Part shown: piece by piece, positions 4,613 through 29,333 of the stretch
How the letters are laid out: every line of letters begins with the position of its first letter
Position numbering within the stretch: the first letter of the stretch is position 1
NCBI GenBank assembly: GCA_048941015.1
Contig: JBHLNZ010000029.1
Span: 1 to 39,705, forward strand
Reading direction: 5' to 3'
Source: Promethearchaeota archaeon
GTDB taxonomy: Archaea > Asgardarchaeota > Lokiarchaeia > Sigyniarchaeales > SOKP01
DNA: 39,705 bases
The notes under the pieces: generated by a model
What the model saw: only the letters and a program-made list of their open reading frames with translations
Database searches by the model: none
Told to the model about the DNA's origin: nothing
Translations under genes and position numbers: made by a program

Positions 4613-6022
4613 TTATTTCTTCTTTCTGCCTTTAGGTTCAATTTTTTTTATAATTATTGCTTCAGCATGAATTTTACAGTTCTTCAGAATCACTTTAAAT
4701 CCACCAGCACCACCTACTCCAGGGATGGTCATTCCAACAGTTCCCATTGGAACCATAGCACCCTCAGCTTCATACTCTTCTTCCTCTTCCTCTTCGGCTT
4801 CTAATTCGGCCCACGTCTCTACAACAGGATGACCAACTTCTTTTAGAAAGTCCCTTAGAGCATTAATGTCTTGAACCTCTTCTTCAGTAGCGATCTTTGG
4901 TAATAAGTCTTGTGGAAGGAATTCACCAACCCGTTCTTTAACAGCTTTAGGCATCCACACAATAGTTTCGATTCCACCATCATATTGTTGATATTTTGGG
5001 GATACGATGTATTGTATACTCACACCATTAAATCCAGGCATCTGTTTTCCCCCTCCAGTTTGGTTTGCCATGGCTGAGAAAGGTAAACCGTTTATAGCAA
5101 CCCCATCAAAATTTCTATCTACTATACCATGTCCATTTACTTCAGGGATATAAAAATCTATTGCTTCAAAACATCCGCAACTAGTGTGAGGGAACTCCAT
5201 TCCGCTATAAAGAAAAATTCTATTAATCTCACCAAGTGAACGCTTTTTAATCATCTCGTTTATTCCAGTAAATTCTCCTGCTTCTTTATTTAAACAGTCA
5301 CCAGGGGGTACTTCATAAATTGGTCCCTTAGGATCTACTTTTGCCGCAGCTCTAGCATCAAACCAATTTATTGAACCACATAGTGATGTTCTATCAGGAG
5401 TTATACAGCATGCATGAGTAGGAGCGAAAGACTGACATAATACACATCCATAAAACATATCTACATCTTCATCATGGATTGTTCTAGCTCTCTCATCTCT
5501 CTTTTCATATATCTGCATTGCCATTTCATATGGTTCTAAAATTGCTTTCTCATCTGTATAGAATGTAACTTGAGCTTGTTCAATTATGGGTAATTCTGCT
5601 TTATAAAGTCTGATTAAGATTGTTCCAAGCATATTAAAGGTATTTAAACCTTTTTCGAAGGCTGATTTAGAAATTCGCATCCAATTCGTATAACGTTGGT
5701 TTAAATGCATTATACCATTAACAAAATTGCAGAATTCATGCACTCTTCTTTCAAATACTGCTTCTAAATCTTCTTCTAATTGAGGCCCAGCAACTTCTAC
5801 AAGGATACCTATTGGGTATCTTTCTCCTTCTTTCATGTCTTTAATATCAGGTCCATGAAGTATAACCTGCCCATCTTTTACTTCTTTAGCTGGTTTGACC
5901 CTAACTAGCTCAAAATGCTTTTCAATTTTTGGTCCTCCTAACTCTACATACATTTGATTTGCTCTAATACGTTCGCCTTCGTAGACAGGGCCTACATCTA
6001 CAGGCATATCGGAAAAACTCAT
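4613..6022 (-). CDS. cdhC: Acetyl-CoA decarbonylase/synthase complex beta subunit (acetyl-CoA synthase)
   Basis: YEGERIR N-terminus, A-cluster motifs GCVLCQSFAPTH and TSCGCFE, GGGKQMPGF, acidic linker, archaeal C-terminal 'KVILKNCKIHAE' segment. Confidence 0.95.
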   Translation of the reverse strand: MSFSDMPVDVGPVYEGERIRANQMYVELGGPKIEKHFELVRVKPAKEVKDGQVILHGPDIKDMKEGERYPIGILVEVAGPQLEEDLEAVFERRVHEFCNFVNGIMHLNQRYTNWMRISKSAFEKGLNTFNMLGTILIRLYKAELPIIEQAQVTFYTDEKAILEPYEMAMQIYEKRDERARTIHDEDVDMFYGCVLCQSFAPTHACCITPDRTSLCGSINWFDARAAAKVDPKGPIYEVPPGDCLNKEAGEFTGINEMIKKRSLGEINRIFLYSGMEFPHTSCGCFEAIDFYIPEVNGHGIVDRNFDGVAINGLPFSAMANQTGGGKQMPGFNGVSIQYIVSPKYQQYDGGIETIVWMPKAVKERVGEFLPQDLLPKIATEEEVQDINALRDFLKEVGHPVVETWAELEAEEEEEEEYEAEGAMVPMGTVGMTIPGVGGAGGFKVILKNCKIHAEAIIIKKIEPKGRKKK

Positions 6023-6066
6023 ATTATTAACCTCCTATAACTTTCCTCTTTATTGTTTTTTAATAT

Positions 6067-6597
6067 TTATAAATTCTCAATTAATTGTTCTAAAAAATTT
6101 TTCCAATCATCATTACTCAAATTTGGAAGACTAAATCTCGCATTAGGATGCGAATATTTATCTAAGTCAATGGTTCTTAAGTGATTTTGAAAATTCTTTA
6201 GTCGACTTAGCGTTTGGCTGACATAATAGACTAAATGGCCTCCAAAAATAGCCATTCCGTATTGACCTTTTCCATCTAAGCCTTTCCAATTTGCATCAAC
6301 TAGTCTACCAGTAGTATTAATTAAGGACATATCCCATAATTTATTTTCTGGAAAATGTTCTTTTAAATACTTATAAGTATGTCCTGTAGCTATAACATGA
6401 CAATCTAATTTTTTAGCAATTTCAATGTAATAATCAGCGACTTTCTTTCCATTAAGCTCCCAGTTAATTGATTCTGCGCCAATGACAAATACCTTTTTCT
6501 TATCTGCTTTCAGAATGTTTGCCATAACTTTTGGATCAAAAACGGCGGTACCCATTTCTGGTCCGGGGATATTAGCTTTTTGGTATGGTCTTGCCAT
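6067..6597 (-). CDS. cdhB: ACDS complex epsilon subunit
   Basis: PYQKANIPGP start, WKGLDGKGQYG, YYVSQTLSRLKNF, HPNARFSLPNL; directly upstream of cdhC. Confidence 0.9.
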   Translation of the reverse strand: MARPYQKANIPGPEMGTAVFDPKVMANILKADKKKVFVIGAESINWELNGKKVADYYIEIAKKLDCHVIATGHTYKYLKEHFPENKLWDMSLINTTGRLVDANWKGLDGKGQYGMAIFGGHLVYYVSQTLSRLKNFQNHLRTIDLDKYSHPNARFSLPNLSNDDWKNFLEQLIENL

Positions 6598-14047: not shown

Positions 14048-15070
14048 TTACGAAATTTTAGAGCATAAATTTTTTAAGATTTTCTCGGCTTCTTTGGTGA
14101 AGCCTGCAACAATATCGTCTACATCCATCATAGAGTCAATTAATCCGCAAGTTTGTCCTACTGGTATCGCTCCATTTTCAACATCACCTTTAGTATACAC
14201 AATTTCATATGCTTGTAGATCCTTTAAATACTCATCCATTTCATAAGCATGTTCTTGAGCAATCTTCTGCTCTTTTGTCATAATTTCTCCATGTTCTAAA
14301 GCATATTTATTTTTTAACAATCTAATAGGACCGAACCCTCCTGTTGTTAATATTGTATCTCGAGAAGTTGCGGGGGGTATTAGAGCTTTATAGTTGGGAT
14401 GGAATTCACTTTGATTAGAAGCTATAAATCGTGTTCCCATGGCAACAGCATCGGCTCCCATTGCTAATCCTGCTGCTACACCTTCTGGACTTGCGAAACC
14501 ACCGCAGGCAATCAATGGTTTTTCAGGATATTTTCGAGCTACCTCTTGAACAAGTACTAAAGTTGAAATTCCTTCATAGCTTTGATGGCCTCCTCCTTCA
14601 GTTCCAGTTGCAACGATTCCATCGCAACCTGCAGCAACAACTTTATCAACTAACCAAAGAGCAGGAGCTACGTGGAAATGGTTAATATTTGGAGCCCTTT
14701 CTTTTAAAATCTTACTAGCTGGCCGAGATCCTCCTGCACTAGTTAATATATATACTAATTGTTCCTTTAACTTTGGATTTTCATTGCACCATTCAGTAAT
14801 TTTCTTTAACATTCTCTTATTATCAGTTTGAATTCGAGCTGTTCGAATATTTACTCCAAAAGGCTTATCAGTATGTTCAATTACATATTCCAATTGTTGT
14901 TTCATATCTTCTACTGAATTTTTACCACGTAAAGTTGCATGACTAACAACACCAAGTCCACCTGCTTCTGAAACTGCTACTGATAGCTCAGTTGTATAAA
15001 ATGGACCCATTGGAGCACTTAGAATGGGATATTTAATTCCAAATAGTTCAGTTATTCTTGTTTTTATCAT
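14048..15070 (-). CDS. Nitronate monooxygenase / FabK-like FMN-dependent oxidoreductase
   Basis: YPILSAPM, AVSEAGGLG, KPFGVN, GTEGGGH, ACGG, MGTRF. Confidence 0.88.
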   Translation of the reverse strand: MIKTRITELFGIKYPILSAPMGPFYTTELSVAVSEAGGLGVVSHATLRGKNSVEDMKQQLEYVIEHTDKPFGVNIRTARIQTDNKRMLKKITEWCNENPKLKEQLVYILTSAGGSRPASKILKERAPNINHFHVAPALWLVDKVVAAGCDGIVATGTEGGGHQSYEGISTLVLVQEVARKYPEKPLIACGGFASPEGVAAGLAMGADAVAMGTRFIASNQSEFHPNYKALIPPATSRDTILTTGGFGPIRLLKNKYALEHGEIMTKEQKIAQEHAYEMDEYLKDLQAYEIVYTKGDVENGAIPVGQTCGLIDSMMDVDDIVAGFTKEAEKILKNLCSKIS

Positions 15071-18022: not shown

Positions 18023-18162
18023 AAAAATTGTAATTTTTATTCTATTCATGATATTTATGTTCCAATAACAACAAAATATTTTCTTTTAATAATTAAATAA
18101 AATAAAATCTAATCATTAATTATTCCATTAAAATAAAGTAAAAATGTAAAAGAGGCCAAATT

Positions 18163-19419
18163 TTGCGAAAAGTTGCGATAATAGGTGTAGGAATAACACC
18201 ATTTAAAGCACGATATTTAGATAAGACTTATTTTGAGCTAGCATTTGATGCCACTAAATTAGCACTTGAAGATGCGAATAAAAATGGAGCCCAAATCTCC
18301 CATAAAGATCTCCAATCAACGGTATATGGAATTTATAATGAACTTTTTGAAAGACAATTCATGCCTGATATATTTACAAATAGTTACCTGGGAATGAATG
18401 ATAAACCCGGAACAAGAATTGCGAGTGGAGGTGCTACGGGAGGGTATACTGTACGGATGGCATATGCAGAGATAGCTTCAGGATTATCAGACTTATGTCT
18501 TTGTATAGGTTTAGAAAAATGTAATGATTGCTATGATGAACAAACAGGAACAACGACTCCAGAGGTTTTAAACGCTATTGCTTATTCAGCAGATATGACC
18601 TACGAATATCCAATGGGTATGATGGCCGCTAGTTCTTATGTATCGATGGTTAACGCTCATTATGAGGAATTTGGTAATCCAACTGAAGAACAGATGGCAT
18701 ATGTAGGCGTGAAAAATCATGGTAATGCGATGCTTAATCCAAAAGCGCAATCTCCTATGAAAATAACAGTAGAAGATGTTATGAACTCAAGAATCATCTG
18801 TTACCCTTTCAAAATGTTAGATTGTTGCTTATATTCAGAAGCTTCTGCTGCTTTAATATTAGCTCCTGAAGAAAAAGTTAAAGAATTAGGAGTTGAAAAG
18901 CCCATCTGGATAACGGGTGTAGGAGCAGCGAATACCGATTGTTTTATTGGTAATAGAGAGAGCTTAGGAAGGTTATATTCAAACATTAATGCTGCAAAAA
19001 TGGCATATAAAATGGCTGGACTTGATTATAATAAAATTAAGAATCAAATAGACTTAGCAGAGCTACATGATGCTTTTTCAGGACAAGAGGTAATCTCATA
19101 TGAAGAACTTGGATTTGTTCCATTTGGAAAGGGTGGTCCATGGATAGAAAAAAGCTTTGAAAAATCAGGAGAAGGACCATGGTTAGAAGGAGAACTCCCT
19201 TGTTGTCCTTCTGGAGGATTAATAGGATGTGGTCATGCTGTAGGAGCAACAGGAATAATGAGTACTGGAGAAGCTGCCCTCCAATTAAGAGGCGAAGCAG
19301 GAAAGCATCAAGTTCAAATTAGTAAAGGAAGAGCAATCTCACATTCTATTGGAGGTCCAGGAGCGGCTTATGCTGCAATCATAGTAATGTCAAATGAGGA
19401 GGGGTTGAAAAAGCCATGA
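18163..19419 (+). CDS. Thiolase-fold (SCP2-thiolase-like) protein lacking the nucleophilic Cys
   Basis: VAIIGVG, KNHGNAMLNPKAQ, LDCC, ELHDAF, SGGLIGCGHAVGATG; 'GATG' (Gly90) where thiolases have 'CASG'. Confidence 0.88.
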   Translation: MRKVAIIGVGITPFKARYLDKTYFELAFDATKLALEDANKNGAQISHKDLQSTVYGIYNELFERQFMPDIFTNSYLGMNDKPGTRIASGGATGGYTVRMAYAEIASGLSDLCLCIGLEKCNDCYDEQTGTTTPEVLNAIAYSADMTYEYPMGMMAASSYVSMVNAHYEEFGNPTEEQMAYVGVKNHGNAMLNPKAQSPMKITVEDVMNSRIICYPFKMLDCCLYSEASAALILAPEEKVKELGVEKPIWITGVGAANTDCFIGNRESLGRLYSNINAAKMAYKMAGLDYNKIKNQIDLAELHDAFSGQEVISYEELGFVPFGKGGPWIEKSFEKSGEGPWLEGELPCCPSGGLIGCGHAVGATGIMSTGEAALQLRGEAGKHQVQISKGRAISHSIGGPGAAYAAIIVMSNEEGLKKP

Positions 19420-19910
19420 GTGAAGAATTTAAAGAACATCAAATAAGAGATGTAATAAGAATTAATTATAAATATACTATGGGAGGTCAATCCAAATTTT
19501 TTATTGAATTATTGAATAATAAAAAATTGTTTGGCACTAAATGTACAAAATGCGGAAAAACTTGGATGCCACCAAGGATTAATTGCTCTGATTGTTATAC
19601 ACCGACGAATTGGGTAGAAGTTAAACAAACTGGAACTATAGAGGTTAGCACTATTGTATGGTATACAACATCAGCATTTATAAAAGCAATTCCCTATGGA
19701 ATAGGATTTATTAAGCTAGATGGAGCTGAAACAGCATTACTTCAAGGAATCTTTTCAGAAAATTTAGTTCCCTCTAAAATTAAAAAGGGAAAAAGAGTAA
19801 AAACTGTTTTCAATAAACTAAGAGAAGGAAAAATGACAGACTTTTTCTTTGTTCCTGAAGATGAATATGAAAATTGGATTGCGAAACCAGAATTTGAAGG
19901 AGGAGAGTAA
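19416..19910 (+). CDS. DUF35 Zn-ribbon/OB-fold protein (thiolase partner)
   Basis: CTKCG...PPRINCSDC Zn ribbon plus OB-fold; ATGA overlap with the thiolase-fold gene. Confidence 0.88.
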   Translation: MSEEFKEHQIRDVIRINYKYTMGGQSKFFIELLNNKKLFGTKCTKCGKTWMPPRINCSDCYTPTNWVEVKQTGTIEVSTIVWYTTSAFIKAIPYGIGFIKLDGAETALLQGIFSENLVPSKIKKGKRVKTVFNKLREGKMTDFFFVPEDEYENWIAKPEFEGGE

Positions 19911-19912
19911 AA

Positions 19913-20284
19913 ATGGGGCAAGCAAAAGAAAGTCTTATTAAGATAATAGAAAAATTAAACCAGAGCTCTAAAGCTAAAGACGTGTTTGTCACGAATGTTG
20001 CTGGAAAGGACGTTGACTGGGAAATGTCGTTTCAATTCAATCTTGATAATGAAAACCCTTTCTATTTAGAAGTTAGAAATCGAAAAGTAACATTATCGGA
20101 TGGGATAAAACCCGATGCGATTATAGTCATGTCTGGTGATAATAATTCAATAGTAAAAATATGTGATGGGAAAGGGGATTTCACGCATGCAATTTCTCGG
20201 GAAGAAATTTCTGTTGAAAAAGGAAAGGTGATGGATGTAATTCGCCTTACTAGAGCAATAACTATTACTCTCAAAACCAATTAA
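19913..20284 (+). CDS. SCP2 sterol/lipid-binding domain protein
   Basis: FQFNLD..FYLEV..VTLSDG..PDAIIVMS..ICDGKGD..AISREEISVEKG fits the SCP2 pattern; 2 nt after the DUF35 stop. Confidence 0.7.
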   Translation: MGQAKESLIKIIEKLNQSSKAKDVFVTNVAGKDVDWEMSFQFNLDNENPFYLEVRNRKVTLSDGIKPDAIIVMSGDNNSIVKICDGKGDFTHAISREEISVEKGKVMDVIRLTRAITITLKTN

Positions 20285-20424
20285 TTCTCTCTTTTTTATT
20301 TGAACTCAATTCATAGATAGAAATCTTTATATTGTTAGCTAAGAAATATATGAACTATCTATAATTTAACTTAAAATGTAATCCATTAATATAATAAAAT
20401 TAAAAATTATGAAGTGATAATTTA

Positions 20425-21237
20425 ATGAAAAGAGAATTTGCAGTATTAGGTATTATAATCGGAATTGTGGGAGGTTTTTTTGCAGGATGGTTAATTCCCG
20501 CGTTTATAGGCAATATAACAGGCCGTAATCTAGTTCAAAAGATAGAGACTCGCGGATCAATTATTATTGGAACTAGTGCTGATTATCCACCCTTTGAGGA
20601 CTTTAATACAACTACTGATACTTACTTTGGTTTTGATATAGATTTATGTGAATTAATCGCAGCAGAATTAGGTGTTGATATTGAATGGAGAGATATGGAT
20701 TTCGATTCTTTGATTGGTGCTTGTAAGGGAGGTACGATTGATATGATTGCAGCTGCTATGACCTATACTCCTGAACGTGCCCAACAACTAGCTGCTTCTT
20801 TAGCTTACATTAATATAAGTCAAGTTGTTATTGTTAATGCCAGTACGTCACTCTCAATTACACAATTATCGGATCTAACAGCTCTAGGAGCTGGTACAGT
20901 TGGAGTTCAATCAGGGACTACTCTTTATGATGATTTAATAGATGCCGGTTTAACAGACGAAATAACAACATTTGCAAGAGCTGACCTTCTTATGTTAGAC
21001 TTAGCAGTAACGGGAGGAATTACAGCAGCTTATGTAGATGAACCAGTTTATACTGCTTGGTCAGGGATATATAATCTCGATGTTGTATGGACTTCTGGAG
21101 AACCAGAACAATTTTCATTGTGGTGTAGACATAAATCAGCAGATTTGCTATTTATAATAAACCAAGTAATACATAAAGCCTTTCAAGATGGAACTATGAA
21201 TGACCTTTATAATAAATGGTTTGGCGGTATTCCCTAA
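20425..21237 (+). CDS. Polar amino-acid ABC transporter substrate-binding protein
   Basis: GTSADYPPFE, GFDIDL, MDFDSLI, MTYTPER, GVQSGTT; N-terminal TM anchor. Confidence 0.92.
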   Translation: MKREFAVLGIIIGIVGGFFAGWLIPAFIGNITGRNLVQKIETRGSIIIGTSADYPPFEDFNTTTDTYFGFDIDLCELIAAELGVDIEWRDMDFDSLIGACKGGTIDMIAAAMTYTPERAQQLAASLAYINISQVVIVNASTSLSITQLSDLTALGAGTVGVQSGTTLYDDLIDAGLTDEITTFARADLLMLDLAVTGGITAAYVDEPVYTAWSGIYNLDVVWTSGEPEQFSLWCRHKSADLLFIINQVIHKAFQDGTMNDLYNKWFGGIP

Positions 21238-21336
21238 TTCATACAAATTGAAAGAAAAATAATGCAAGTGGGACGATAAATCTGGGGAGCACTCGAGGCA
21301 TTTAATTAAAAGCGAAGGTTTTGAGGATTTAATATA

Positions 21337-22098
21337 ATGAAAAGAAGATATCTAATAATATTAATATTTAGCATAGGAATAATCAGTCTAGGAATTATTT
21401 ACTATTTTTTTTTTCCATTTCTTTTTAATATTTTTATTTATATTCTTTTAAGTGGATTACCTCAGACATTACTCCTCACTGGTTTAGGATTACTTGGTGG
21501 ATTTTTATTAGGTATTACACTAGCAATAATGCGTATTTATGGAAGTAAGGAACTGCAGTGGTTTTCAAGTGGTTACGAGAAGCTATTTCGTGGTGTACCT
21601 GTGTTAGTTTTGATCTATATCTTTGCTTTTGGGATACCAGGAATTTTTTGGTTCGTATCACCTGAGAATAGATCTCTAGCTGCTGTCATCTTGGCGTTAG
21701 CTCTTCGTAGTGGAGCATATCAATCTCAACTTTTTCGAGGAGCTATTTTATCAGTAAATCCAGGACAGATGGAGGCTGCTCGTTCATTAGGAATGAACCA
21801 GTTCCAGGGTTTTCGACATATAGTGATGCCTCAGGCTTTACGATTAGCAATACCTAGCTGGTCCAACGAATATGCCGTAGTTATCAAAGACTCTTCATTT
21901 GCTTCTGGAATAGGAATTATTGAGTTAACAAAATCAGCTTACCGAATATCTGTAGCTTACCGAGAAATCCCGGAACTTTGGACTTTATCAATGGTATTTC
22001 TCACAATTCTTTATTTTCTATTTACATATCCAATAACGAGATTTTTTGGAGAACGACAAGCTAAAAAACTAAAAGATATTGGGATGGGAGGTGGTTAA
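21337..22098 (+). CDS. Polar amino-acid ABC transporter permease
   Basis: [19 protein letters not shown] (EAA loop), PQALR, IKDSS. Confidence 0.92.
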
Positions 22099-22100
22099 AT

Positions 22101-22886
22101 ATAGGTGAACCTGTAATACGGATAGTTAATATTTGGAAATCATATAATGATTTAAATGTGCTCAAAGGTGTTTCTTTTGAGTTAATGGAAAAGGAAGTTA
22201 AAGTTATATTTGGACCAAGTGGTTCTGGTAAAAGTACTCTGCTTCGCTGCATTAATATGCTAAATCCGCCTGATAAAGGTGAGATATATCTCCGGGGTCA
22301 AAATCTAATGGAATCAAATGTGGATCTAAACAAAATTCGTTCACGGATCGGTATGGTGTTTCAACACTTTAATTTATTTGCTCATCTTAAAGCCGTAGAC
22401 AACGTAAGTATTGGACTTCGCCGTGTAAAAGGCTTATCGAAGGAAGAAGCCCATGAGAAAGCATTAATGGCATTAAAAAGTGTAAAAATGGTTAAATGGG
22501 CAGATCATTACCCAGCACAATTATCTGGAGGACAACAGCAGCGTGTGGGTATTGCACGCGCATTAGCTATGGAACCAGATGTAATTTTATTTGACGAACC
22601 TACTTCTGCTTTGGATCCTGAACTAATTGGTGAAGTTCTACAAGTGATGTTGGATATCGCAAAATCTGGAACCACTATGATTGTGGTCACGCACGAATTG
22701 GGATTTGCTAAAGCAGTTTCATCCGAAATGATATTTCTTGGAGACGGCATTATATTAGAACGTGGAACTCCTGAACATTTCTTTACATCCCCTGAATCCG
22801 AAAGAGTAAAGAAATTTCTTAAACAACTCGAAGTGTTATACGGAAGTCATGAAAGACTTTTGAAAATTGAAAAGAAGGAGGAATAG
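22101..22886 (+). CDS. Polar amino-acid ABC transporter ATPase (GlnQ-like); start probably upstream of the GTG at 22158
   Basis: [26 protein letters not shown]; in-frame upstream [19 protein letters not shown] matches the family N-terminus; exact start uncertain. Confidence 0.88.
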
Positions 22887-22888
22887 AA

Positions 22889-23638
22889 ATGATATTCCAA
22901 TATTTACCGGAACCGATAGAGGACCTTCTAAGTGTATTAGGGTATTGGAATCTAATGCTCTCAGGGTTTATAATGACAATGTGGCTATACGGTATAGCGC
23001 TTTTAATGGGCTTTATTATGGGACTTTTTTTTGCTAATCTTCGTCAGTATGGGGGAATAATTTTATCGAGAATTGCAACTGCTTATATAGAACTAATTCG
23101 TGGAACTCCTTTACTAGCTCAATTATTTCTTTTCTACTTTCTTCCTTATAGTCTAAGCATTCCTATCGGAAATTGGAGCTATGGGATCAGTTTTGTTCTG
23201 TTTGGAAAAGATGTAAATGTTATCCTATTAAACCATCGAGTTTTAGTTGGTCTCACCACTTTAAGTATTAATAGTTCTGCCTATCAGGCTGAATACTTCC
23301 GAGGAGCAATATTATCTGTTGGAACTGGACAACTACAAGCTGCTCAATCATTAGGAATGTCTCGTATATCTGGGATCCGCCATATAATTTTACCACAAGC
23401 GCTACGCCGTGTTATTCCTGCTTGGTCAAATGAAGCAGCATATCTTCCCAAATATACCGTTGTTGTTTATTTCATAGGTGTTATAGAACTCTTCGCGCAA
23501 GCTCATAATATTGTTGCTTACACTTTTGCATCACTCCTTACTTACATTATCGTTGCTATTATATTTCTAGTTCTTATCGCTACCATAACTAAGGGATTGG
23601 ATTATATATATAAACGAACAGCAATTCCAGGTTTATAA
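22889..23638 (+). CDS. Polar amino-acid ABC transporter permease (second)
   Basis: IRGTPLLAQL, AYQAEYFRG, GQLQAAQSLGM, PQALRR. Confidence 0.92.
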   Translation: MIFQYLPEPIEDLLSVLGYWNLMLSGFIMTMWLYGIALLMGFIMGLFFANLRQYGGIILSRIATAYIELIRGTPLLAQLFLFYFLPYSLSIPIGNWSYGISFVLFGKDVNVILLNHRVLVGLTTLSINSSAYQAEYFRGAILSVGTGQLQAAQSLGMSRISGIRHIILPQALRRVIPAWSNEAAYLPKYTVVVYFIGVIELFAQAHNIVAYTFASLLTYIIVAIIFLVLIATITKGLDYIYKRTAIPGL

Positions 23639-23866: not shown

Positions 23867-25564
23867 ATGAGTAGTGAAAAATTTTGGTTAAAATCATATG
23901 ACAAACATGTTCCACCGACGTTAACTTATCCAAATAAAGACCTTGGAACAATTTTGACAGAAACAATGACAAAATATTCAGATAGGATTGGATTTCATTT
24001 TATGGATCGTTCTTTTCCATTTTCTGAAATTTTAGAATATTCTCAAAAATTTGCTACATTTTTACAAAAAAATGGGCTTCAAAAAGGTGATGTAGTAGCA
24101 ATTTGTCTACCTAATACCCCTCAATTTTTATTTGCAGCTTATGGAACTTATATTGCGGGAGGAACTGTTTCTGGTTGTTCTCCACTCTTAAGTCCTGAAG
24201 AGATGGCTTATCAACTAGGAGATTGTAATGCAAAAGTCGTTGTAACTATGGATATTCTCTATGAAAAAGTCTTTTCCAAATTTTTAGACAGATTGCCAAA
24301 TCTACAAGTGATTGTCCCTACAAATGTTTCTGAATTTATGGGATTTTCTGGATTTAAAGTGTTTATGGGTAAATTGATAAAAAAAATACCAAAAGGTAAG
24401 ATGGATCCATGGCCAGGAAAAACAGTAGTGCCATTTTTAAAGGCGGTAGATTTTGAAATTGATTTAAAAAAAGTTGAAATTAATCCTAAAAATGATTTAG
24501 CACTTATCCAATATACAGGAGGAACCACAGGTCTTCCTAAAGGCACTGAAATTGTTCATTCAAATTTGGTTTCAAATATGCATCAGTTCGACGTTTGGCT
24601 CAATAGAGAGAAGGGAAAAGAAATAACTTTATCAGCATTTCCCTATTTTCATATAGCAGGTTACTTTATAGGATTATTTTTGAATTATATCGGAGGTACT
24701 CAGATAATTATCGCAAATCCGAGAGATACCGATCATATTATAAAGGAACTTATTGATAAAAGACCTTCTAGTTTTGGAAATGTACCAACTCTATTCTTAA
24801 TGGTTCAACAAAATCCAAAGTCAAAAGAAATTCCACCAGAAGTATTAGATAATATTACCTTATATGTTAGTGGAGCAGCACCATTTCCACCTGAAGCTAT
24901 AAGAAATTTTGAAAAACAATTTCATTCAGAAAATAAATTCATTGAGGTATACGGAATGACTGAAACTGCTGTATTAGCTACTGTAAATCCAATGTTTGGA
25001 GAAAAGAAAATAGGATCGGTCGGTCTACCTCTACCAGACACTGATATCAAGCTTATTGATGTAGAAACAAGTGAAGAAGTAGGTATTGGAACACCTGGTG
25101 AAATCTTAATAAAAGGACCTCAAGTTACCAAAAGATATCACAATAAGCCTGAAGCGACAGCAAAAACTTTTGATGAAGATGGATATGTTCACACTGGAGA
25201 TGTTGGTGTTTTTGATGAAGAGGGATATTTAAAGATTGTCGATCGTACAAAAGATATGCTTATAGTTAGTGGCTTCAAAGTGTACAGTGTCCATGTTGAA
25301 GAAGTTATGACTAAACATCCCGATATAGCAATATTAGCTATAATTGGAATACCAAACCCTGATCGTCCTGGAGCTGAAATTGTTAAAGCTGTTATTCAAT
25401 TGAAAGAAGGCGTATCTGCGACTGAAGAAGTAAAGGATAGTATTAAGAAATATGCTGAGGAAAACCTTTCAAAGTATGAGGTTCCGAAGATATGGGAATT
25501 CCGAGAAGAACTGCCTCTAACCACTGTAGGTAAAGTATTAAAAAGAGCATTACGTGAAGAATAA
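23867..25564 (+). CDS. fadD: Long-chain fatty-acid--CoA ligase
   Basis: QYTGGTTGLPKG, YGMTE, HTGDVG, DRTKDML, GKVLKR. Confidence 0.88.
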   Translation: MSSEKFWLKSYDKHVPPTLTYPNKDLGTILTETMTKYSDRIGFHFMDRSFPFSEILEYSQKFATFLQKNGLQKGDVVAICLPNTPQFLFAAYGTYIAGGTVSGCSPLLSPEEMAYQLGDCNAKVVVTMDILYEKVFSKFLDRLPNLQVIVPTNVSEFMGFSGFKVFMGKLIKKIPKGKMDPWPGKTVVPFLKAVDFEIDLKKVEINPKNDLALIQYTGGTTGLPKGTEIVHSNLVSNMHQFDVWLNREKGKEITLSAFPYFHIAGYFIGLFLNYIGGTQIIIANPRDTDHIIKELIDKRPSSFGNVPTLFLMVQQNPKSKEIPPEVLDNITLYVSGAAPFPPEAIRNFEKQFHSENKFIEVYGMTETAVLATVNPMFGEKKIGSVGLPLPDTDIKLIDVETSEEVGIGTPGEILIKGPQVTKRYHNKPEATAKTFDEDGYVHTGDVGVFDEEGYLKIVDRTKDMLIVSGFKVYSVHVEEVMTKHPDIAILAIIGIPNPDRPGAEIVKAVIQLKEGVSATEEVKDSIKKYAEENLSKYEVPKIWEFREELPLTTVGKVLKRALREE

Positions 25565-25681: not shown

Positions 25682-26497
25682 ATGAATATTGAAGACTTTG
25701 AAGATATAATCTACGAAAAGGAAAAAAATGGAATATGTGTTGCTACTATTTCTAAACCCGAGAGAAGAAATGCAGTTACTTATATTTCGTTTTTGGAACT
25801 TTATAAAGTGCTAGAAGACATGGAAAAGGACAGAAATTCTAAAGTTTTAATAATTACAGGTGATCCAAAAGGGAATGCATTTACTTCTGGAGGTTATTTC
25901 ACTCCAGAAATGTTTAAAAAGTTGAAGCAGTACCCAGAAATAGACCTTATGGATATTGCACAGAAAAAATTGACTCTTAAACTTTTAAAATTCACTAAAC
26001 CTGTTATTGCTGCAATAAATGGTATGGCTATTGGAGGAGGTGTCACTATGCCTTTAGTCGGAGCAGATCTAATCTTTATGGCAGAAGATGCTTGGTTAGG
26101 TTTCTATTTTTCAAAAAGGGCAATCCTCCCGGAGTTTGGCTCAACTTTCATTCTACCATTATTAGTTGGATTTCAGAAAGCAAAGGAGATTTGCTATTTC
26201 GGAGAAAAAATTTCTGCTCAGAAAGCATTAAAACTCGGTTTAATCAATAAGGTATTATCTGAAGAAGATCTAATGCCTTATACGCGTGAGCAAGCATTAA
26301 GATTAATACCTCCCAAGGGACCAAGTTTGTCTATAAAACTAATGAAAAAAACTATGCATGATTATTTTATTGATATGTTAGAAAGGACTTTAGATCTTGA
26401 AAATAGAGGATTGAGAAAAGCATTTGCTTCTAAAGATTTTGCCGAATCGATGAATGCTCTAAAAGAAAAAAGAGAGCCTATTTTTAAAGGCCGTTAA
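25682..26497 (+). CDS. Crotonase-family protein, isomerase-type
   Basis: KPVIAAINGMAIGGG; lacks both hydratase Glu; acidic residue in LPEFG. Confidence 0.85.
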   Translation: MNIEDFEDIIYEKEKNGICVATISKPERRNAVTYISFLELYKVLEDMEKDRNSKVLIITGDPKGNAFTSGGYFTPEMFKKLKQYPEIDLMDIAQKKLTLKLLKFTKPVIAAINGMAIGGGVTMPLVGADLIFMAEDAWLGFYFSKRAILPEFGSTFILPLLVGFQKAKEICYFGEKISAQKALKLGLINKVLSEEDLMPYTREQALRLIPPKGPSLSIKLMKKTMHDYFIDMLERTLDLENRGLRKAFASKDFAESMNALKEKREPIFKGR

Positions 26498-26576
26498 TTA
26501 AACTTATACACTCGGTTTTAAATTTAATTTTTTGTTAAACTATATCTTTAAAAGTTATCTGGTTGAATTATTTCTT

Positions 26577-28130
26577 ATGATTAAAAGTAATATTGATGAA
26601 AGTAGAATAATTTCGACCTATCCTGTAATAGTAATTGGCGCTGGTCTTGGAGGCCTTGGTGCTGCGTGTCAACTAATACTTAGAAATGAAAAAGTATTAC
26701 TACTTGAAAAGCATAACGTGCCTGGTGGATTTGCTACCTCATTCGTTAGAGGTCGTTTTGAATTCGAAGGTGCACTTCATGAATTGAGTGATTTTGGATC
26801 AGAAAAAAATCAAGGAAATCTTTATCGATTTTTCGAAAGACTTGGAGTCATTCCTGATAAATTACAATTCAAGCAGATTCATGAGATGTACCGAAGTGTT
26901 TATCTTGATGGCTTTGATATAACTGTACCCTTTGGTTTAGAAAAATATACAGAAAAGTTACTTGAATTTTTCCCTCATGAAAAAGAAGGAATTCACAAGT
27001 TTATAGACATGTGCGAGAAAGTGCAAGCAGGAATAGAGTTTATTGCCTCTAAGGGAGGAAGGTATAATCCCGCTGAAGTTCTTCAAAATCATCCTTGGTT
27101 ACCAAGAATTTCTGGTTTAACATTGTTAGAATTACTTAAACGGTTTTTTAAAGATGAAAAATTAATCTCTGTTGTTTCTCAGCTCTGGGGCTATGCTGGT
27201 TTACCTCCAAAGAGATTAAATGCATATATCTATGTAGCAATGCTTATGTCCTTTCTGAAACATGGAGCAGTTTATCCTGTTGGAAGATCTCATGCTCTAA
27301 GTAATGCTATGGTACAAAGATTTCTAGACTTAGGGGGTGATGTAAAATTTAATGCTACTGTTAATAGGATTTTAACAGAAAACGGAAAAGTATGGGGTGT
27401 TGAGCTTCTAAATGGTGAAATTTACCGATGTGAAGCTGTTATATCTAATGTAAATCCTATTTGTACAACAATGAAAATGCTCCCAAGTGAAATAGTTCCT
27501 GAGAGTTATAAAAAGTCTATTTATGCCCCAGAGATCGGTCCCTCAGCATTTTCCGTTTATTTAGGATTAAACACCACTATGGATGAGTTAGGTTTAGCAG
27601 CTCATGAGACTTTTATTAATGAAACTTGGGATATGAATAAAGCTTTTGAAAATTTTACAAAATTAGAACCACCCAAATACATTGTTGCTGCTTGTTATAA
27701 TAGAGTAGTTGACGAGATTTCTCCTCCTGGAACGACTGAAGTTGTGCTTACAACCCTCCAGATGGGTAAAATTTGGCAAAGTGTTTCCCCAGACCAATAT
27801 TTCAAAATTAAGGATTACATTGCTGGAAAAATGGTTGATATGGTAGAAAAAACGCTGTGTTCTAATATAAAAGATTACATTGAAGTTGCTGAAGCTGCGA
27901 CACCACTCACATATTACAGATATTCAAAAAATATTGAAGGTGCTATCTATGGGTATAGCCAAGATATATTAAATATGCCATTACTTCGTCTTAATAGTCG
28001 AGGCCCAATCCAAGGAGTATATTTAGTAGGTGCATGGACTAATTTTGGTGGAGGTTTCTCAACTGCTATTTTGAGTGGAAGAATAGGCGCAGGGTTATAT
28101 TTAAGAGATAAAGCAAAAGGGAGGATTTAA
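26577..28130 (+). CDS. Phytoene desaturase/retinol saturase (CrtI/RetSat)-like FAD-dependent oxidoreductase
   Basis: VIGAGLGGL, LEKHNVPGGFATSF, ATPLTYYRY..GAIYG, YLVGAW..GGG; ATG 26577 preferred over TTG 26532. Confidence 0.85.
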   Translation: MIKSNIDESRIISTYPVIVIGAGLGGLGAACQLILRNEKVLLLEKHNVPGGFATSFVRGRFEFEGALHELSDFGSEKNQGNLYRFFERLGVIPDKLQFKQIHEMYRSVYLDGFDITVPFGLEKYTEKLLEFFPHEKEGIHKFIDMCEKVQAGIEFIASKGGRYNPAEVLQNHPWLPRISGLTLLELLKRFFKDEKLISVVSQLWGYAGLPPKRLNAYIYVAMLMSFLKHGAVYPVGRSHALSNAMVQRFLDLGGDVKFNATVNRILTENGKVWGVELLNGEIYRCEAVISNVNPICTTMKMLPSEIVPESYKKSIYAPEIGPSAFSVYLGLNTTMDELGLAAHETFINETWDMNKAFENFTKLEPPKYIVAACYNRVVDEISPPGTTEVVLTTLQMGKIWQSVSPDQYFKIKDYIAGKMVDMVEKTLCSNIKDYIEVAEAATPLTYYRYSKNIEGAIYGYSQDILNMPLLRLNSRGPIQGVYLVGAWTNFGGGFSTAILSGRIGAGLYLRDKAKGRI

Positions 28131-28133
28131 ATA

Positions 28134-29333
28134 ATGGAAAAAGAAGTAATGGATGATATTAAAAAATATCAAAAAGCTGAAAAGTTAAAAAAATGGCGAG
28201 ATGAGGTTCAACCTATTCCTTGGTATTATGATGGATTAGAAAACCTCTGTGATAGAATACACCCTGGAAAGCAAAAATTAAGGGTAACTGATATTGAAAG
28301 TCTTTCCCATGATACTAAATTAGTTAGATTTGTTTCAGCGAATCCTAAAAAACCTTTAGCACCATTTCGAGCGGGACAATACATTGGACTTACTGTTGAA
28401 ATTGGTAATGTACGGACTAGTCGTCCTTATTCTATAGTTTCATCACCAAATCAGCTTGCCTACTATGAATTAGGCATTAGAAAAAAATTAGATGGTTTTG
28501 TAAGTCCCTATTTAATTGATAATATTAAAATTGGAGATGTTTTTGAAGCAACAGAGCCATTGGGTACCTTCTACTATAATCCTATCTTTCATGGTAAGAA
28601 TTTGGTGTTCATTGCTGGAGGATGTGGAATCACACCTTTTATTTCGATTTTAAGAGATATTTCAGAAAGAGTACTGGATTTAAATGTTTGGTTAATTTTT
28701 GGTTGTTTAACCGAAAAAGATATTTTATTTCGGGATCTTTTAGAAAATCTTCAAAATAGGAGGCCCAATATCAAAATAAAGTATATTTTATCAGAAGCAG
28801 AATCAAGTTGGAAGGGTGAATGTGGTTTTATTACAAGAGATAAGATAAAAAGTTATATTGAAACAATCGAAAACAAATTTTTCTATGTTGTAGGAAATCG
28901 TACTATGTATTTATTTATTGATGAAGAATTAAAAGAATTAGGTATTTCAAGACACCGCATTAATTATGAAGCTTTTGGAGTTCCAGATGACATAACTAAA
29001 GTAATAGGATGGCCGCAAGAAATTGATGTTAATAGAAAAGTAAAATTAACTATTGAATTAAAAAATTATGGGCAGAAAAATCAAAAAATGTTTGAAGTTC
29101 TTTGTTCAGAGCCTCTCTTAAATAGTCTTGAAAAAGAACTAGGATTAGAACTCCAAATCGAAAGCGGATGTCGTTCAGGAGCATGTGCACTGTGTAGAAC
29201 TAAACTAATCTCTGGAAAAATATTTATTCCTCCTGAAGTAAGAATAAGAGAAGTTGATAAAGACTTTGGATTTATTCATCCTTGTGTCTCTTATCCTTTA
29301 ACAGATCTCCATTTAGATCTAACTATAACATAA
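28134..29333 (+). CDS. FNR-type NAD(P)H:flavin reductase with a C-terminal [2Fe-2S] ferredoxin domain (KshB/PaaE/Hcr-like architecture)
   Basis: FRAGQY, RPYS, GFVS, IAGGCGITP, YEAFG, CRSGACALC...HPC; 3 nt after the previous stop, with a GGGAGG SD. Confidence 0.9.
   Translation: MEKEVMDDIKKYQKAEKLKKWRDEVQPIPWYYDGLENLCDRIHPGKQKLRVTDIESLSHDTKLVRFVSANPKKPLAPFRAGQYIGLTVEIGNVRTSRPYSIVSSPNQLAYYELGIRKKLDGFVSPYLIDNIKIGDVFEATEPLGTFYYNPIFHGKNLVFIAGGCGITPFISILRDISERVLDLNVWLIFGCLTEKDILFRDLLENLQNRRPNIKIKYILSEAESSWKGECGFITRDKIKSYIETIENKFFYVVGNRTMYLFIDEELKELGISRHRINYEAFGVPDDITKVIGWPQEIDVNRKVKLTIELKNYGQKNQKMFEVLCSEPLLNSLEKELGLELQIESGCRSGACALCRTKLISGKIFIPPEVRIREVDKDFGFIHPCVSYPLTDLHLDLTIT

Follow-up and report, generated by a model that had tools for sequence, protein, structure and literature searches.

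What reaction is left to a thiolase-fold protein once both catalytic cysteines are gone? The question is raised by a three-gene operon in a 39,705-nucleotide stretch of DNA from Promethearchaeota archaeon (GenBank assembly GCA_048941015.1, contig JBHLNZ010000029.1, positions 1 to 39,705; hereafter the window). The window is part of a 3.6-Mb Asgard genome of about 31% GC, and its proteins have their closest relatives among sequences labelled Hermodarchaeota, Promethearchaeia or Promethearchaeota. The operon encodes a thiolase-fold protein of 418 residues (P0001), a DUF35 protein (P0002) and an SCP2-fold protein (P0003). We propose that the three together form a non-thiolytic, non-covalent acyl-coenzyme A (acyl-CoA) lyase complex of the retro-aldol type, acting on hydrophobic substrates. 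This proposal is tentative, and we put its chances somewhat below even.

The active site of the thiolase-fold protein

P0001 has the fold of archaeal and SCP2-type thiolases, as indicated by Pfam matches to PF22691 (4.5e-24) and PF00108 (4.3e-07) and by Foldseek template modelling (TM) scores of 0.8-0.9 to thiolases. It falls under the cut-off of every NCBIfam thiolase model, including PRK06064, PRK06365 and the archaeal acetyl-CoA acetyltransferase equivalog; the best scores are 301 bits (cut-off 420), 287 (695) and 242 (600). Its motifs are GGATGG (residues 89-94), HDAF (302-305), GCGH (355-358) and SHSIGG (393-398). When aligned with HMMER to the solved thiolases 7YVY and 6ESQ, Gly90 lies under the nucleophilic Cys (AACASG), His302 under the His of HD[AC]F, Ala304 under the Cys of HDCF and His358 under the His of GHP. 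The active-site tetrad is thus G90/H302/A304/H358. P0001 keeps the fold and both oxyanion-hole His of a thiolase, and lacks the nucleophilic Cys as well as a Cys at either acid/base site (HDAF; SHSIGG). A preliminary description of the locus, made from the sequence, had noted Gly90 in place of the nucleophile, the retention of His302 and His358, a C-terminal loop free of Cys, and a Cys356 two residues before His358. The alignment and motif positions bear out each of these observations.

The tetrad matches none of the known types. SCP2-type thiolases have C/H/C/H (nucleophile, HDCF His, HDCF Cys, GHP His), TcLtp2 has G/Y294/H296/Y344, CtSal has G89/Y302/C304/Q352, and TbSLP has a YDCF motif (PMC12329534). 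In PhlC and MucB, the nucleophilic Cys is kept and HDxF is lost (PMC12960953). P0001 shares with Ltp2 and Sal the Gly at the former nucleophile position (Gly89-Gly90), the backbone of which binds the substrate hydroxyl in CtSal and TcLtp2 (PMC12329534). However, it has His302 in place of the base Tyr of YD[HC][FY]; the HDxF motif corresponds to YDHF/YDCY, in which the aldolase base comes first (PMC12329534). The acid of these enzymes (Ltp2 Tyr344, Sal Cys304) is likewise absent, with Ala304 and His358 found there by motif spacing and alignment to SCP2-type thiolases; the equivalences to 6OK1 and 9MYR rest on the motif correspondence stated in PMC12329534. Membership in the Ltp2, Sal, TbSLP, PhlC and BbsB groups was rejected, since one defining residue fails for each. 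The earlier view that P0001 is neither a classical thiolase nor of the Ltp2 type therefore holds, given its G/H/A/H tetrad as opposed to C/H/C/H and G/Y/H/Y. The literature searched contained no paper addressing the G/H/A/H clade and no characterized enzyme with that combination; the clade is uncharacterized in searchable papers.

Conservation and phylogeny

The GGATG, HDAF, GH and SIGG motifs are invariant in 108 full-length homologues (50-94% identity) from Asgard lineages, Thermoplasmatota, Helarchaeota, Nitrospirota and other bacteria. When compared with five orthologues, the ratio of nonsynonymous to synonymous substitution rates (dN/dS) was 0.03-0.045 for the thiolase-like gene, 0.02-0.11 for the DUF35 gene and about 0.15 for the SCP2 gene, with synonymous sites saturated. 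A FastTree phylogeny was built from 147 proteins, comprising representatives from a search of a 1.84-billion-protein library and the paralogues of this genome. The Cys-less clade of P0001 has a support of 97-99 in this tree, and at least six losses of the nucleophilic Cys map to this branch of the thiolase superfamily. Low dN/dS and firm clade support argue for a working protein under strong constraint and not for decay. A degenerating pseudogene was ruled out by the dN/dS of about 0.04 and the invariant motifs. The Gly-Gly nucleophile loop GG[AT]TG is common to the P0001 clade and the Tyr-type, Ltp2-like group; this suggests that the two are kin, with the deep branches of the tree unresolved.

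Cys356 had been put forward as a possible relocated nucleophile. This idea fails, because the residue is not conserved: it is present in 26 of 54 distant clade members and replaced by Ala, Thr or Gly in the other 28, all of which retain G90, H302 and H358. An equivalent Cys also occurs in ordinary Cys-containing thiolases. The sole clade-wide cysteine is Cys123 (106 of 108 members), at a position where canonical thiolases have Val or Ala. It sits in the context E118-K-x-x-D122-C123, five residues after the family-wide Glu118-Lys119. Canonical thiolases rarely have the other residues that are invariant in the clade: R17, Y58, N59, Y141, Y224 and E226.

The DUF35 and SCP2 partners

P0002 is a DUF35 protein with a zinc ribbon and an oligonucleotide/oligosaccharide-binding (OB) fold. 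It matches PF12172 at 25.3 (cut-off 23.2) and PF01796 at 26.2, just below the cut-off of 27.1. The four cysteines of its zinc-ribbon motif (C43xxC46...C57xxC60) are invariant. The sequence match of P0003 to SCP2 is weak (Pfam 19.4 against a cut-off of 21.3, E=1.3e-3). Its structural model has a predicted local distance difference test score (pLDDT) of 93, all of its top Foldseek matches are SCP2 proteins (archaeal AF1534 at E 4.7e-07), and its protein-atlas clusters are named SCP2. It carries an invariant stretch, G86-K-G-D-F-T-H-x-I-S-R-E97. This motif variant is missing from two further SCP2-like open reading frames (ORFs) of the genome.

A complex of P0001, P0002 and P0003 was modelled with a separate alignment for each chain and with SCP2 as the scored partner. 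The median score was 0.82, compared with 0.00 for the best control, and the runs agreed in at least 97% of contacts with a partner pLDDT of at least 88. Among solved complexes, 58 of 80 attain this mark, as do 2 of 110 mismatched pairs; these counts hold only roughly here, as the use of own alignments and three chains departs from the calibration. In the predicted interface, residues 86-110 of SCP2, including the invariant GKGDFTHxISRE (86-97), contact thiolase residues 175 and 204-215 and DUF35 residues 80-93 and 115-120. The thiolase segment lies just before a PFKxLDCCLYSE stretch that, by homology, would line the pantetheine tunnel. The model supports docking of SCP2 on the thiolase/DUF35 junction. 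Memorization of a solved structure is unlikely to explain the score, since SCP2 is not known from any structure in which it binds a thiolase/DUF35 pair in trans. With an SCP2 fold in the third gene product and this predicted docking, the suggestion of an unfused layout resembling eukaryotic SCPx is supported.

Fused thiolase-SCP2 or DUF35-SCP2 forms were also sought among longer proteins matching the SCP2 profile, and none was convincing. The search returned a single 350-residue SCP2 protein joined to an FAD-binding domain, represented by one member on one contig, which is probably a gene-call artefact.

Operon layout and gene neighbourhood

The features of the locus are collected in Table 1. 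The thiolase-fold gene is preceded by an AT-rich intergenic spacer of 140 nt (18023-18162), which ends with a Shine-Dalgarno-like element, and GGAGGAG is found just 5' of the SCP2-fold gene start. The tight coupling reported earlier, a stop-start overlap of the first two genes and a short gap before the third, can be read directly from the sequence. The three genes thus probably form one transcription unit, and the T-rich tract behind them is a plausible archaeal oligo-T terminator marking its end. DNA of the operon is present in sediment and mangrove metagenome runs, and no RNA run was listed as containing it.

Table 1. Features of the operon and its surroundings, with positions in the window
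Feature	Position	Strand	Remarks
Archaeal carbon monoxide dehydrogenase (CODH)/acetyl-CoA synthase subunits	4613-6597	-	CdhC-type beta and epsilon; about 12 kb 5' of operon
ORF of 499 residues	12046-13545	-	no Pfam or NCBIfam match
FabK/NMO-family flavin mononucleotide (FMN) oxidoreductase	14048-15070	-	divergent upstream neighbour; recurs in 35/80 loci
Shine-Dalgarno-like GAGG	18152-18155	+	8 nt 5' of TTG start; read directly from sequence
Thiolase-fold protein P0001, 418 aa	18163-19419	+	TTG start; without catalytic Cys
DUF35 protein P0002, 164 aa	19416-19910	+	start overlaps thiolase-fold gene stop (ATGA)
SCP2-fold protein P0003, 123 aa	19913-20284	+	2-nt gap after DUF35 stop
T-rich tract	20285-20301	+	directly 3' of SCP2 stop; T6 at 20292-20297
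Amino-acid ATP-binding cassette (ABC) transporter	20425-23638		between operon and ligase
FadD-like acyl-CoA ligase	23867-25564	+	directly after SCP2 gene in several genomes
Crotonase-type enoyl-CoA hydratase	25682-26497	+	with ligase, directly after SCP2 gene in several genomes
CrtI/carotenoid-isomerase-family FAD oxidoreductase	26532-28130	+	travels with ligase and hydratase
PaaE-like FAD/NAD/2Fe-2S reductase	28134-29333	+	travels with ligase and hydratase
DUF35 protein P0005	32188-32790	-	partner of P0004
Second Cys-less thiolase-like protein P0004, 473 aa	32795-34216	-	KTGGATGG, HDAF, GCMH

Gene order was compared across 80 Promethearchaeota genome loci, the genome scan having yielded close Promethearchaeota relatives only, and about 10 distant loci from a metagenome scan. 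A DUF35 gene adjoins the thiolase-like gene in 73 of the 80 genome loci and an SCP2 gene is present in 70. The triad is found in every locus whose contig extends far enough, and also in most Loki-type metagenome loci. Taken with the invariant motifs, this recurrence far exceeds what chance would give. The recurrent Asgard order is a FabK-like oxidoreductase, then the thiolase-like, DUF35 and SCP2 genes, then the ligase, crotonase, CrtI-like and PaaE-like genes; this last set follows the triad either directly or after an inserted ABC transporter. The SCP2 gene accompanies the Asgard branch only. Distant homologues, which have 50-55% identity and the same four motifs, keep DUF35 and lack SCP2. 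One such locus (L107) encodes a ligase, a MaoC hydratase, an acyl-CoA dehydrogenase, the thiolase-like and DUF35 proteins and a ligase, a module built on the logic of the steroid side-chain set ligase/ChsE/ChsH/Ltp2. Another (L159) encodes an acyl-CoA dehydrogenase, the thiolase-like and DUF35 proteins and a ligase.

Only 3 of 160 loci have a 3-hydroxyacyl-CoA dehydrogenase of the 3HCDH type within 6-7 kb. Elsewhere, the genome encodes four such dehydrogenases and two canonical Cys thiolases. The combination of a ligase, a desaturating enzyme, a hydratase and a second ligase without a dehydrogenase resembles the logic of the aldolytic pathways for steroid side chains, a comparison that by itself is weak evidence. 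The neighbourhood as a whole fits a hydratase-plus-lyase route.

Two observations concern the arrangement of these genes. In four loci (L054, L168, L177, L071), the whole triad is present in two tandem copies with 78-88% identity to the window proteins, reflecting a recent operon duplication. In addition, several related loci have the 499-residue ORF of the window, conserved at 56-65% identity, beside the FabK-like gene.

Relation to characterized thiolase-fold systems

The best sequence and fold matches of P0001 are the archaeal thiolases that work with DUF35 (6ESQ/6ET9 of M. thermolithotrophicus; 7YVY of P. furiosus). Matches to this group have E-values of 1e-44 and 9e-41 (about 1e-44 for 7YVY and 1e-30 for 6ESQ), with Foldseek TM scores of 0.80-0.90. 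The zebrafish SCP2-thiolase, ST0096 and BbsB are also among the nearest solved proteins by sequence and fold, ahead of Sal (9MYR) and Ltp2 (6OK1). These systems and the operon have in common the HDxF and GHxxGATG motifs and an adjoining DUF35. They differ in that the archaeal thiolases retain the nucleophilic Cys (AACASG), where P0001 has Gly90; P0001 also has Ala304 at the position of the HDCF Cys. Furthermore, the operon contains an extra SCP2 gene and, in contrast to the thiolase/HMG-CoA synthase (HMGCS)/DUF35 complex of M. thermolithotrophicus, no HMG-CoA synthase gene.

The aldolases TcLtp2-ChsH2(DUF35) (6OK1) and CtSal-Shy(DUF35) (9MYR) resemble the operon in several respects: a Gly at the nucleophile position, a DUF35 partner, hydrophobic substrates as proposed for the operon, and a ligase, dehydrogenase and hydratase context lacking a 3-hydroxyacyl-CoA dehydrogenase. 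They are more distant from P0001 (E 7e-19 and 8e-16; fold rank 47-48). Their catalytic residues, Tyr294/Tyr344 in Ltp2 (YDHF) and Tyr302/Cys304 in Sal (YDCY), differ from the His302/Ala304/His358 of P0001, and they carry DUF35 as a fusion with a MaoC hydratase, whereas that of the operon stands alone.

SCPx, or SCP2-thiolase type 1 (zebrafish 6HRV/6HSJ), belongs to the same HDxF-type subfamily as P0001 (E 5e-36) and likewise pairs a thiolase fold with SCP2. However, its two domains are fused, its active site is Cys/His/Cys/His and it has no DUF35, while the parts of the operon are unfused, Cys-less and DUF35-dependent. TbSLP and the trypanosomatid SCP2-thiolases are of the same subfamily, with YDCF in TbSLP where P0001 has HDAF. 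Thiolase-like and DUF35 zinc-finger subunits are encoded side by side for BbsAB (7PXP) and PhlABC/MucABC, as in the operon. The nucleophilic Cys persists in BbsB and PhlC/MucB, and the loss of HDxF in PhlC/MucB is the reverse of the situation in P0001. Finally, ST0096 of Sulfolobus tokodaii (4YZO) is an archaeal protein with a Cys-less nucleophile site (TSGSGG) and both His (HDMA, GHPIGASG). It has a fold TM score of 0.76-0.90 to P0001 but different loop motifs and a place in another clade. Literature searches for ST0096 and PFC_04095 found no functional data.

Proposed reaction and alternative explanations

In the proposed complex, a thiolase-fold dimer would be flanked by DUF35 zinc-ribbon/OB subunits, with the SCP2 subunit at the thiolase/DUF35 junction. 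An acyl-Cys intermediate cannot form because Gly90 replaces the nucleophile, and the proton-donating Cys is missing as well (HDAF instead of HDCF). The two remaining His could polarize the thioester and stabilize an acyl-CoA enolate, allowing a C-C bond to be cleaved or made without covalent catalysis. The most likely reaction would be a retro-aldol cleavage of a 3-hydroxyacyl-CoA to a carbonyl compound and acetyl- or propionyl-CoA. His302 would take the position of the catalytic-base Tyr of Ltp2 and Sal, and the acid may be a clade-specific residue (Tyr224, Tyr141 or Tyr58) or else His358. The substrate might be produced by enzymes encoded nearby (acyl-CoA ligase, dehydrogenase or oxidoreductase, enoyl-CoA hydratase), and SCP2 would hand it over since it is proposed to be hydrophobic. 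Such retro-aldol chemistry fits the gene context. The preliminary description had also suggested it as one possibility, with branched, isoprenoid or steroid acyl-CoAs as candidate substrates.

A more specific version can be formulated, which we consider doubtful. P0001 would represent an unrecognized Cys-independent His/His C-C lyase of the thiolase fold, acting in a three-part assembly with DUF35 and an SCP2 subunit dedicated to lipid delivery, and would cleave 3-hydroxyacyl-CoAs that are refractory to beta-oxidation in Asgard archaea. Tertiary alcohols from beta-methyl-branched, isoprenoid-derived chains would be one example of a substrate. In archaea, the complex would then correspond to the thiolase-SCP2 pairing of eukaryotic SCPx, with its parts unfused.

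Several points count against a retro-aldol lyase. Genuine archaeal thiolases resemble P0001 more closely, by sequence as well as by fold, than do Sal and Ltp2. Both characterized thiolase-fold aldolases have Tyr at the His302 position, and the inactivity of the Cys304His variant of CtSal (PMC12329534) means that His cannot be taken as an established replacement in this scaffold. The active-site loops are modelled at low confidence (monomer pLDDT <50 at residues 60-66, 121-155, 210-224 and 353-358). In the window, the ligase and hydratase genes are set apart from the operon by the amino-acid ABC transporter. The missing nearby dehydrogenase is weak evidence, and the screen covered dehydrogenases of the 3HCDH type.

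The absence of both catalytic Cys would also be expected of a pseudoenzyme that binds acyl-CoA and, through DUF35, assembles a hydratase, dehydrogenase and reductase, with SCP2 as a lipid-loading arm. DUF35 mediates assembly in the archaeal thiolase/HMGCS complex (PMC12329534) and in the fatty-acid-synthase complex of Sulfolobus (bioRxiv 10.1101/2024.07.05.601840), and Cys loss is frequent, with at least six events on the tree and four of the six thiolase folds of this genome affected. We nevertheless judge such a scaffold unlikely. The invariance of H302, D303, H358, the GG loop and SIGG at 50-94% identity, with a dN/dS of ~0.04, exceeds what a scaffold needs, and no second catalytic partner gene always adjoins the operon.

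Two catalytic alternatives seem less probable still. Thiolase or Claisen chemistry could persist with another nucleophile, either Cys123 or a free CoA thiol attacking the 3-keto group; we regard this as rather improbable. The near-universal presence of Cys123 in the clade and of Val or Ala there in canonical thiolases speaks for it, as do the intact oxyanion-hole His residues and the fact that true thiolases are nearest to P0001 in sequence and fold. The Cys123 loop may also be near the pocket, since Glu118 corresponds by spacing (+28 from the nucleophile position) to Glu116 of PhlC, an active-site base (PMC12960953). However, HDAF and SIGG leave no acid/base Cys that could protonate the departing enolate, Cys123 is absent from the second G-H-A-H paralogue (P0004), and the cluster has no 3-hydroxyacyl-CoA dehydrogenase to supply a 3-keto substrate. 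Cys123 lies in a low-confidence region of the model, and Cys356 is excluded by conservation. The kept His/His pair could instead stabilize an enolate for the decarboxylation of malonyl- or 3-carboxyacyl-CoA, or for alpha-proton exchange (as a racemase or isomerase) on a branched acyl-CoA, a substrate that would suit delivery by SCP2. The Cys-less TbSLP does decarboxylate malonyl-CoA, with a kcat of 0.005 s-1, but this activity is very low, its authors now suspect an aldolase, and CtSal has no decarboxylase activity (PMC12329534). As the recurrent neighbourhood also has no carboxylase gene, we give this explanation only a slim chance.

Other thiolase folds of the genome and significance

The genome encodes six thiolase folds, four of which lack the nucleophilic Cys. 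Besides P0001, the window encodes P0004, which is also G-H-A-H but falls in a different clade of the tree, close to NF004982 (684 bits, cut-off 695). P0004 and its DUF35 partner P0005 are flanked by BKACE and acyl-CoA dehydrogenase genes. A third locus (C126:13052-16455; L003/L005) encodes two adjacent degenerate thiolase folds between two DUF35 proteins. The second of these folds has GGTTGG and a Tyr at the HDxF position (VYSPF), resembling Ltp2/Ltp3-4, and ST0096 (4YZO) as its best match in the Protein Data Bank. The canonical thiolases are one paired with DUF35 on contig C9 and one at C87:25947-28592, which lies directly 3' of a 480-residue ORF matching the DUF35 profile. The latter pair is probably the mevalonate-pathway complex of the organism.

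Thiolase-fold/DUF35 pairs number 3.8 per genome in Asgard archaea (bioRxiv 10.1101/2024.07.05.601840), and are counted as ketothiolases when the fatty-acid metabolism of the closest relatives of eukaryotes is inferred. Such counts overstate thiolytic capacity, because four of the six thiolase folds here cannot be thiolases. Complexes of thiolase-fold and DUF35 proteins are already known; the G/H/A/H combination with a separate SCP2 is a new variant. Once its reaction is defined, the thiolase superfamily would gain a further catalytic solution, and it would become clearer how anaerobic sediment archaea process hydrophobic acids. In addition, the predicted docking of a free SCP2 provides a testable prokaryotic analogue of SCPx.

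Interrupted orthologues and other features

The thiolase-fold gene of the window is uninterrupted. In other Promethearchaeia genomes, orthologues that are otherwise 82-92% identical to it are interrupted by inserts of 28-35 nt with in-frame stops (loci L016-L018, L023-L026, L047, L059, L068, L071, L075, L079, L085, L087 and L098). Seven inserts recur in position, at nucleotides 32, 376, 441, 454, 538 and 921 of the gene, with two different inserts at 921. Each insert is a hairpin flanked by exon-exon pairing in a helix-bulge-helix-like arrangement, with compensatory changes in the stem between genomes. They look like tRNA-type, bulge-helix-bulge (BHB) mini-introns in a protein-coding gene.

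The window also encodes subunits of CODH/acetyl-CoA synthase (Table 1), and the organism therefore probably has the Wood-Ljungdahl pathway.

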